The notes under the pieces were generated by a model. That model was given only the letters and a program-made list of their open reading frames with translations. It was not told the origin of the DNA and searched no databases. Of a DNA stretch of 64,000 bases, positions 25,573-27,011 are shown one piece after another. The number at the start of each line of letters is the position of its first letter. Positions within the stretch are counted from its first letter, which is position 1. The DNA is from Escherichia coli (lineage in GTDB: Bacteria; Pseudomonadota; Gammaproteobacteria; Enterobacterales; Enterobacteriaceae): the NCBI RefSeq assembly GCF_965641715.1, contig NZ_OZ282453.1; one strand, given 5' to 3'. Made by a program: the position numbers and the translations under genes.

Positions 25573-26349
25573 ATGCTGATTCTTATTTCACCTGCGAAAA
25601 CGCTTGATTACCAAAGCCCGTTGACCACCACGCGATATACACTGCCGGAGCTGTTAGACAATTCCCAGCAGTTGATCCATGAAGCGCGGAAACTGACGCC
25701 TCCGCAGATTAGCACGCTGATGCGTATCAGCGACAAACTGGCAGGTATCAATGCCGCTCGCTTTCATGACTGGCAGCCAGATTTCACGCCGGAGAATGCC
25801 CGCCAGGCGATTCTGGCGTTTAAAGGTGATGTCTACACCGGCTTGCAGGCCGAAACCTTCAGCGAAGACGATTTCGATTTTGCCCAACAGCATTTGCGAA
25901 TGCTTTCCGGCTTGTATGGCGTACTCCGCCCGCTCGATTTAATGCAGCCTTATCGTCTGGAAATGGGGATCCGTCTTGAGAATGCCCGAGGGAAAGATCT
26001 GTATCAATTCTGGGGAGATATCATCACCAACAAGCTGAACGAGGCGCTCGCAGCACAAGGCGATAATGTGGTGATTAATCTGGCGTCAGATGAGTATTTT
26101 AAATCGGTGAAGCCGAAGAAATTGAATGCCGAGATTATCAAGCCGGTGTTCCTCGATGAGAAGAACGGCAAATTTAAGATAATCAGCTTCTACGCTAAGA
26201 AAGCACGCGGTCTGATGAGTCGTTTCATTATTGAAAATCGGCTGACCAAACCAGAGCAACTGACTGGTTTTAATAGCGAAGGTTACTTCTTTGATGAAGC
26301 TTCCTCCAGCAATGGCGAACTGGTGTTTAAACGCTACGAGCAGCGTTAA
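25573..26349 (+). CDS. yaaA: peroxide stress resistance protein YaaA (UPF0246)
   Basis: 258 aa [35 protein letters not shown]... Confidence 0.9.
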
Positions 26350-26361
26350 GTTTGTAGTCAA

Positions 26362-26480
26362 TGCCGGATGCGGCGTGAACGCCTTATCCGGCCTACAAAA
26401 GCATGCAGATTCAATATATTGCAGAATTCACGTAGGCCTGATAAGACGCGCCAGCGTCGCATCAGGCGCTGAATGCCGGA
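26362..26480. repeat. REP/BIME element (two REP units in inverted orientation)
   Basis: gccggatgcggcgtgaacgccttatccggcctac followed by gtaggcctgataagacgcgccagcgtcgcatcaggc, the canonical E. coli REP palindromes. Confidence 0.85.
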
Positions 26481-26501
26481 TTGTTACCGGGCGTTTGTCA
26501 T

Positions 26502-26798
26502 TTAGCGGTGATGTTTGCCTGGACCATGACCGCCGTGATGATCATGATGAGCTTTCTTATGGTGACGCGGCGGTGGCGGCGGTCCGTGTGGGTGCCAGCG
26601 ATTGCCTCGCCATTCATAATGTTGTTTCCACCAGCCGTGGTCGCGCCAGTGACCGCCATCCCAGTAATAACCGCGATTATCACGATCGCCTATCTGTAAT
26701 TTTACTGACGGGACTAACGTAATTTCCGCAGCCTGCGTTGCCATGGGAGCGACCAGAACCAGGGAAAGTGCGAGTACGATAGATTGCATCTTTTTCAC
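26502..26798 (-). CDS. yaaX: small secreted His/Pro-rich protein YaaX (DUF2502)
   Basis: 98 aa, signal peptide [24 protein letters not shown]-terminal [28 protein letters not shown]. Confidence 0.85.
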
Positions 26799-27011
26799 AG
26801 GTTACTCCTTTTATCATTGCCCGTTATGGGTCGATATCCGGAGATTACGCGATGAGAACGGCGGTTGTTATTCTCCGCAATCCTAATCTCTAAGTTACCG
26901 CATTTATTGAGAATTCCTCCTTTTTCCCTGTCGTTTCTCTCCATATTTTCTTCACAAAAAAGCCGGGCTGCATAAAAGCAAACCCGGCCTGATTGAGATA
27001 ATGAATAGATG

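Follow-up and report, generated by a model that had tools for sequence, protein, structure and literature searches.

The gene yaaX of Escherichia coli is best read as a monocistronic, Rcs-induced gene for a Sec-exported periplasmic stress protein, in which a conserved folded core is followed by a disordered, histidine-rich tail. We give this reading a probability of roughly 0.6. The gene lies in a window of 64,000 nucleotides, which is the whole stretch of DNA that was analysed. Both yaaX and the family to which its product belongs, DUF2502, are already known and annotated; in E. coli genomes the entry reads yaaX or DUF2502 domain-containing protein. As a correctly annotated domain-of-unknown-function gene, it has a genomic anatomy without surprise. 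The analysis adds the distinction between the conserved folded core and the variable tail, the lineage-specific nature of the poly-proline run, a tail dimorphism within E. coli, and a link to Rcs at the level of the family. On the E. coli map, yaaX is one of the very first genes; a function, if found, would fill a gap in the picture of what is put out by a stress pathway with ties to antibiotic tolerance, capsule and biofilm.

The coding sequence and its ribosome binding site are located as follows:
26502-26798, minus strand: yaaX coding sequence, 98 codons plus TAA (26504-26502), with a GTG start at 26798.
26804-26810, minus strand: Shine-Dalgarno sequence AAGGAGT, 6 nt before the GTG, in a block invariant in seven genera.

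The ORF on the minus strand translates exactly as quoted in the first-pass annotation and gives a product of 98 amino acids. The GTG start is backed by the AAGGAG Shine-Dalgarno motif 6 nt upstream and by an ATG or GTG at the equivalent aligned position in six other genera. The window carries an O157:H7-type E. coli allele, 100% identical to yaaX of the O157:H7 strain PV15-279, and the gene was found in 5421-5424 of 5426 complete E. coli genomes. The gene is flanked upstream by thrC, which has the same orientation, and downstream by the convergent yaaA. Three records labelled as plasmids in the E. coli genome collection carry both thrC and yaaX; these are probably mislabelled or misassembled chromosomal replicons.

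YaaX is a bona fide member of DUF2502 (PF10697). It scored 52.3 bits (E 6.7e-14) against a Pfam gathering threshold of 27 bits, with residues 25-96 on profile positions 1-89/90. When compared with a 65-sequence family alignment, every near-invariant position of the core motif that follows the signal peptide, P-x-V-x-L-x-I-G-D-R-D-x-x-G-x-Y-W-D-G-x-x-W-R-D-x-x-W-W, is present. Beyond DUF2502, no meaningful match was obtained in Pfam, NCBIfam, PADLOC or PHROGs. Sub-threshold NCBIfam matches (Phr, FomA, Spy) cover the signal peptide only (Spy: E 0.36, residues 1-28) and were discarded. The first-pass annotation, which assigned no function, was correct on this point; no characterised relative was found in Pfam, NCBIfam or the PDB.

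The N-terminus was analysed manually:
26730-26798, minus strand: signal peptide, residues 1-23, with n-, h- and c-regions and agreement with the -3/-1 rule; predicted cleavage A23|A24.

The n-region is MKKM, the hydrophobic h-region has a Kyte-Doolittle peak of 3.2, and the c-region PMATQA|AE ends in a cleavage site of the A-x-A type, with small residues at -3 and -1. Neither a lipobox cysteine nor a twin-arginine motif was found in the N-terminus. The signal-peptide features are kept in 25/25 aligned orthologs, and P18 and A23 are invariant. YaaX is thus predicted, from these features, to be a Sec-exported periplasmic protein of about 9 kDa. The first-pass annotation had correctly recognized the signal peptide, but its term "secreted" should be replaced by "exported to the periplasm", again as a prediction.

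The mature protein was divided with an alignment of 25 orthologous sequences from Escherichia, Citrobacter, Enterobacter, Leclercia, Kosakonia, Cronobacter, Buttiauxella, Yokenella and others. In this conservation analysis, which had been suggested as a check in the first-pass annotation, a conserved core is separated from a tail that is alike among the orthologs in composition only. The core is placed as follows:
26589-26729, minus strand: DUF2502 core, residues 24-70 (47 residues), rich in Trp, Tyr, Arg, Gly and Asp and supported by conservation, selection and the AF2 model.

Invariant or near-invariant core positions are P, G, D, G, YWDG, WR and W, and mature YaaX has 6 Trp versus about 1 expected (P about 5e-4). 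Within E. coli, dN of the core is 0. For Citrobacter and Buttiauxella, against which dS was estimable, dN/dS of the core is 0.025-0.055 versus 0.48-0.56 for the tail. Judged by these substitution rates, the core is under strong purifying selection. AlphaFold2 with the full-length alignment gave a pLDDT of about 87-94 at residues 31-70, compared to 44-66 in the tail, and a core-only run with 65 diverse sequences reached a pLDDT of 91 and a pTM of 0.65. In the core model, a helix at core positions 31-37 is followed by a beta hairpin at 38-47, and short beta bridges are present as well. The comparison of this model with PDB folds gave no match and the profile search of PDB sequences gave a chance hit alone (E 1.8); no structural or sequence relative of known function was found for the core in either.

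The emphasis of the first-pass annotation on W, H, G, R and the PPPPP run was correct as to composition, but the tail, including PPPPP, is the least conserved part of YaaX, and the W/G/R-rich part is the conserved DUF2502 core. According to the model, the latter is a conserved, confidently predicted folded domain of 47 residues and not compositional noise. Attention therefore moves from the Pro/His tail to a Trp-rich domain without a structural relative in the PDB. Several readings of the core were rejected. An EF-hand-like DxDxDG interpretation of GDRDNRG was dropped, because motif position 5 is not acidic across the family. WW domains and the Trp-rich WXXGXW/YXWGXW repeats show a superficial likeness in pattern (G-YYW, two spaced Trp, a W-x-P ending, about 40 residues), and no profile or fold similarity to them was detected. 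The family alignment contains no conserved His or Cys within the core, so any metal site would have to sit in the non-conserved tail.

The tail and its proline run are placed as follows:
26505-26588, minus strand: low-complexity tail, residues 71-98 (28 residues, 36% His), predicted to be disordered (pLDDT 44-66).
26568-26582, minus strand: penta-proline run, residues 73-77, encoded by CCG CCG CCA CCG CCG.

The Pro/His-rich tail and the odd composition noticed at first sight are far from chance: His accounts for 14 of the 75 residues of mature YaaX, with 1.65 expected (P about 1e-9), and for 10 of the 28 residues of the tail (P about 2e-10). Across all six reading frames of the window, the tail is the most His-rich stretch of 28 residues. 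Among the 25 orthologs, tail length ranges from 22 to 41 amino acids, net charge at pH 7 from -6.4 to +4.6 (median -0.5) and His content from 17 to 40%, while H+D+E has a median of 54%. Pooled over 190 family proteins, tails contain 18% His versus a background of 2.2%, and the median per tail is 24% (182 tails). The sole conserved property of the tail is His enrichment, plus Asp in most genera. Given the range in charge, it is the ligand and titratable residues that are conserved and not the charge, which argues against a conserved electrostatic role in polyanion binding and fits His/Asp-rich periplasmic metal-handling segments.

In the 25-ortholog alignment, only E. coli and a few near relatives have the PPPPP run, and we infer that it is a lineage-specific linker outside the conserved mechanism. 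Two tail allele classes occur in E. coli, of which the K-12/O157 type has PPPPP. Only 90-95% nucleotide identity with yaaX of the window was reached in 1388 of 5424 E. coli genomes (about 26%). In the one strain of the divergent class that was examined, the tail reads PPPSPRHNKHNDHRGDHRPGPDKHHR, and PPPSP replaces PPPPP. The two tail alleles differ by codon indels and substitutions; a tail dS of 0.92 within E. coli was set aside as an alignment artefact caused by codon indels. The tail of the PPPSP allele (L015 379-480; PPPSP...HNDHRGDHRPGPDKHHR) resembles the tails of other genera more than the K-12/O157 type (26505-26588) does. A further run, PPPPPP near position 58882 of the window (frame +1), is an off-frame artefact inside the minus-strand ORF 58389-59171, and no plausible plus-strand gene was seen there.

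The family is small. When 1.84 billion representative proteins were searched with a profile of the core, only 112 clusters were recovered, and 157 hits were obtained in the word index. The members that were scanned contain DUF2502 and no other domain. Their common plan consists of a signal peptide, one or two copies of P-G-V-S-L-x-I-G-D-R-D-x-R-G-x-Y-W-D-G-x-x-W-R-D-x-x-W-W, and a tail of low complexity that is enriched in His, Asp, Arg, Gly and Pro. Named members belong to the Enterobacterales (Pantoea, Serratia, Brenneria, Rouxiella, Chimaeribacter), with a few from Betaproteobacteria (Deefgea, Azonexus). The Enterobacterales are the order having the Rcs system; the Betaproteobacteria are not known to have it.

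Eleven DUF2502 members end in a Cys-flanked CPPGQAKKG(N/R)C, which replaces or follows the His-rich tail (P0138, P0145, P0178, P0183, P0189, P0194, P0202, P0204, P0213 and P0219 are named examples); P0202, the member of this type that was scanned, matched DUF2502 only in Pfam. Two metagenome proteins, P0100 and P0105, combine an N-terminal half of the E. coli YaaX type with a C-terminal half, YWDGYDYRDPSYWKQHNGPRGEKHYT, typical of distant members (P0180, P0202), and may be recombinants or assembly chimeras.

The single paralog of YaaX in E. coli is YpeC (b2390). Both have a signal peptide and the core (YpeC: 85 bits on Pfam DUF2502), and ypeC is monocistronic and Rcs-dependent as well. In contrast to YaaX, the tail of YpeC is rich in Arg, Gly, Tyr and Asp, with His just in the terminal GHGHRH and no poly-proline. 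Moreover, ypeC differs from yaaX in its locus (yfeO-ypeC-mntH), in being a direct MarA/SoxS target and in its far stronger response to Rcs activation. The Serratia marcescens gene SMDB11_2817, called a yaaX-like DUF2502 gene by its authors (PMC8470065) and compared here by that published description, shares with yaaX an Rcs-responsive promoter which needs rcsB, but belongs to another genus and locus. Another Serratia member, P0214, differs from YaaX by two core motifs, a longer tail and a gene position between ihfA and btuC.

Concerning a mechanism, the functional module would be the core, with a component of the envelope or a partner protein as its ligand when the envelope is under stress. 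Divalent metals (Zn/Ni/Cu) and/or protons would be bound with low affinity by the His/Asp tail, which could thereby buffer periplasmic metal or make the behaviour of YaaX metal- or pH-dependent. Taken jointly, these two assumptions form a tentative proposal with the odds somewhat against it. Metal or proton binding of the tail as such is plausible, considering the family-wide enrichment of His and Asp in tails. Segments rich in His and Asp occur in periplasmic metal proteins, for instance in the loop of ZnuA, the N-terminus of ZinT and the "metal sponges" PcoE and SilE. The YaaX tail is comparable to these segments in compartment, intrinsic disorder and enrichment of metal-ligand residues, and the His-rich segment is conserved in the YaaX family as a compositional feature, as is characteristic of periplasmic His-rich metal-binding proteins. 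YaaX differs from ZnuA, ZinT, PcoE and SilE in that there is no sequence or profile similarity, and Met-rich motifs like those of PcoE and SilE are missing. Homology to any characterised metal-binding family was not detected in Pfam, NCBIfam, PDB sequences or PDB folds. No sign of a control of yaaX by Zur, CusR or PcoR was found and no known metal-responsive regulator is linked to the gene. yaaX does appear in differential-expression lists of cusS mutants and of silver exposure, where the direction is not given and the neighbouring thrLABC genes change too. A literature search on DUF2502 proteins returned no report on metal binding, localisation or phenotype.

His-rich low-complexity tails can also be functionally neutral. 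Accordingly, the tail of YaaX might be an irrelevant appendage drifting by codon indels, and the core might do everything, e.g., bind peptidoglycan, LPS, capsule or a partner, without any role for metal. This explanation is possible and on balance doubtful. It would account for the variation in sequence, length (22-41 amino acids) and charge and for codon indels even within E. coli, as well as for the fact that the core alone is under strong constraint and alone is predicted to fold. Family members with two copies duplicate the core motif and not the tail, and the conserved W, Y, R and D surface residues are typical of carbohydrate-binding sites. However, drift alone would not maintain the His enrichment, which persists nearly family-wide with a median of 24% in 182 tails and is found also in distant two-copy members and in the GHGHRH end of YpeC; almost all members keep a tail of 20-40 residues.

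The placement of yaaX in the Rcs regulon, a part of our preferred reading of an Rcs-induced periplasmic stress protein, is taken from published expression data. yaaX was up 1.9-fold on overexpression of RcsB (PMC2731931), reached a log2 value of 4.1 with colicin M, where it is listed with Rcs genes (PMC3599342), and was up 8-12-fold with a LolCDE inhibitor (PMC5105897), under which ypeC was up 42-60-fold. In an O157:H7 isolate with disrupted rcsB, ypeC was down 23.7-fold (PMC5343319), and under altered Rcs activity it ranks with the genes that change most. The promoter of SMDB11_2817 was up several log10 in a gumB mutant, needs rcsB and has been adopted as an Rcs reporter (PMC8470065). Three DUF2502 genes in two genera thus respond to the Rcs envelope-stress system according to published reports, and the envelope connection of YaaX is supported independently by this regulation. 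One paper tags yaaX as "RpoS stress induced".

With respect to small periplasmic stress proteins of other regulons, YaaX is similar to CpxP, Spy and ZraP in being small, bearing a signal peptide and being induced by an envelope-stress regulon. In contrast to YaaX, these proteins are alpha-helical and form an unrelated family, and no fold match was obtained. YaaX is therefore placed outside the characterised metal-binding, chaperone (CpxP/Spy/ZraP) and WW/WXXGXW families. Several envelope-stress regulons encode their own periplasmic inhibitor, which raises the alternative that YaaX and YpeC are feedback modulators touching RcsF, IgaA or RcsC/D, as CpxP does for Cpx and ZraP for Zra, and not protective effectors. 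We consider this very unlikely. The strong change of ypeC on altered Rcs activity, the change of yaaX in the same direction, the small size and periplasmic location of the proteins and a family distribution nearly identical to that of the Rcs system would agree with it. It is countered by the missing homology or fold similarity to CpxP, Spy and ZraP, since the Spy signal (E 0.36) covers the signal peptide only, by the direct control of ypeC through MarA/SoxS and by the members in Betaproteobacteria, which are not known to have Rcs. These few members also count against the reading preferred here.

A more far-reaching version combines several of these elements. The DUF2502 core might be a previously undescribed mini-fold and the hallmark of a class of Rcs-controlled periplasmic effectors that is almost restricted to Enterobacterales; the members of this class, YaaX and YpeC with their homologs, would then either bind a specific envelope component, metal- or pH-gated via the His/Asp tail, or act back on Rcs signalling. 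We regard this as speculative and unlikely.

The region upstream of yaaX contains the following elements, listed in the direction of transcription:
26956-26990, minus strand: intrinsic terminator of the thr operon, upstream of the yaaX promoter; hairpin with dG -24 kcal/mol and z -4.5, followed by a U-run.
26898-26917, minus strand: conserved upstream block GGAATTCTCAATAAATGCGG, a candidate regulator site, with ATTC.CA.TAAATGCGG invariant in seven genera.
26866-26893, minus strand: conserved upstream block TTAGAGATTAGGATTGCGGAGAATAACA, near-invariant in seven genera, with a possible -35 hexamer ATAACA.
26872-26885, minus strand: RcsB-like 14-mer TAGGATTGCGGAGA, with a perfect left half-site TNRGA and no match in the right half (3 mismatches in 8 specified positions).
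26842-26847, minus strand: candidate -10 hexamer TAATCT, in the conserved block CGTAATCTCC after a variable, spacer-like stretch of 14 nt.
26820-26830, minus strand: CCC-loop-GGG hairpin in the presumed 5' UTR, with a stem that is conserved and a loop that is variable across genera; the fold is weak (dG -6.5 kcal/mol, z -1.3).

The position of the thr terminator upstream of yaaX indicates that the gene has its own promoter. About 130 bp between this terminator and the start codon are conserved in seven genera in a promoter-like pattern, in the order GGAATTCTCAATAAATGCGG block, TTAGAGATTAGGATTGCGGAGAATAACA block, the variable 14-nt stretch, CGTAATCTCC, the CCC/GGG hairpin and the Shine-Dalgarno sequence. 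With TAATCT as the candidate -10 element, transcription would start near 26835. The sigma-70 consensus scan made no call for TAATCT or for any other yaaX promoter. The same consensus scan for promoters and terminators missed the thr terminator, and its single "terminator" lies inside the coding sequence and was disregarded.

The upstream region was searched for the RcsB homodimer box TN(G/A)GAN4TC(T/C)NA (PMC7913699). In the E. coli yaaX promoter, no box with two or fewer mismatches was found, and the best matches, e.g., TAGGATTGCGGAGA, have 3 mismatches in the 8 specified positions. Within the GGAATTCTCAATAAATGCGG block, a match with 2 mismatches (TTGGGAATTTCTGC) is present at -123 in four genera. 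At the same distance as TAGGATTGCGGAGA of yaaX, about -90 from the start codon, ypeC carries TAAGAGTTATGGCG, and it has CGTAATAT at a position comparable to the candidate -10 element of yaaX. A lone TNRGA half-site is expected by chance about 2.5 times per 160 bp on two strands; the weight of the half-site comes only from its conservation and its shared position. We propose a candidate RcsB site upstream of yaaX; as there is no canonical RcsB box in the E. coli promoter, the regulation could be indirect. When the region upstream of K-12 ypeC (L001 4888-5001) is compared with 26842-26893 of the window, a -10-like element CGTAAT(A/C)T and a TARGA half-site about 90 nt before the start are common to both. 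In the Serratia family member, TAAGAATTGCGTAA at -114 is similar to TAGGATTGCGG of yaaX.

The gene order thrABC-yaaX-yaaA-yaaJ-talB is kept in Enterobacter, Kosakonia, Cronobacter, Citrobacter, Buttiauxella and Leclercia. Genes for distant DUF2502 members always stand alone, in contexts unrelated to one another, and offer no operon partner as a guide; guilt by association with operon members or neighbours failed, since the family members are monocistronic. In the pairs yaaX and yaaA, and ypeC and mntH, the adjacent genes are convergent, and their closeness was treated as coincidence.

A polyproline motif such as PPPPP needs EF-P; the output of the PPPPP allele of YaaX is therefore probably EF-P dependent, and the PPPSP allele is expected to stall less. 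A proline-related pause in yaaX has been seen both by ribosome profiling and by the nascent-peptidyl-tRNA (iNP) method (review PMC13410324). yaaX thus shows the features of polyproline stalling, namely at least three consecutive Pro codons (PPPPP) and the cited pause, and the reported pause means that the gene is translated. A missing signal peptide or missing expression had been named in the first-pass annotation as grounds for abandoning its proposal; the signal-peptide features are present, and expression is shown by published transcriptomics and the translation pause. The assumption that yaaX is a spurious or decaying ORF in the thrC-yaaA spacer, to which its shortness, odd composition, GTG start, lack of a known phenotype and the many frameshifted or truncated variants in databases might lead, is effectively refuted by its retention in at least 5421 of 5426 E. 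coli genomes, its synteny in at least six other genera, the purifying selection on the core, the conserved Shine-Dalgarno sequence and promoter, the confident AF2 core, the regulated transcription and the ribosomes observed on yaaX mRNA in published work.

Downstream of the gene, a repeat element was found:
26358-26472, within 26328-26493, no strand: inverted REP pair (BIME), inverted repeats forming a hairpin with dG -59 kcal/mol and z -4.1.

This BIME lies just past the yaaX stop codon and fills the space that separates yaaX from the convergent yaaA; about 39 copies are present per genome. Rfam gave sub-threshold naRNA4 matches on both REPs and ES036 (CssrF) at 26397-26439 on the plus strand, with 38.8 bits versus a gathering score of 37.6 bits. 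In strain Ecol_745 the BIME is missing, and the gap between yaaX and yaaA measures 39 nt versus 152 nt.
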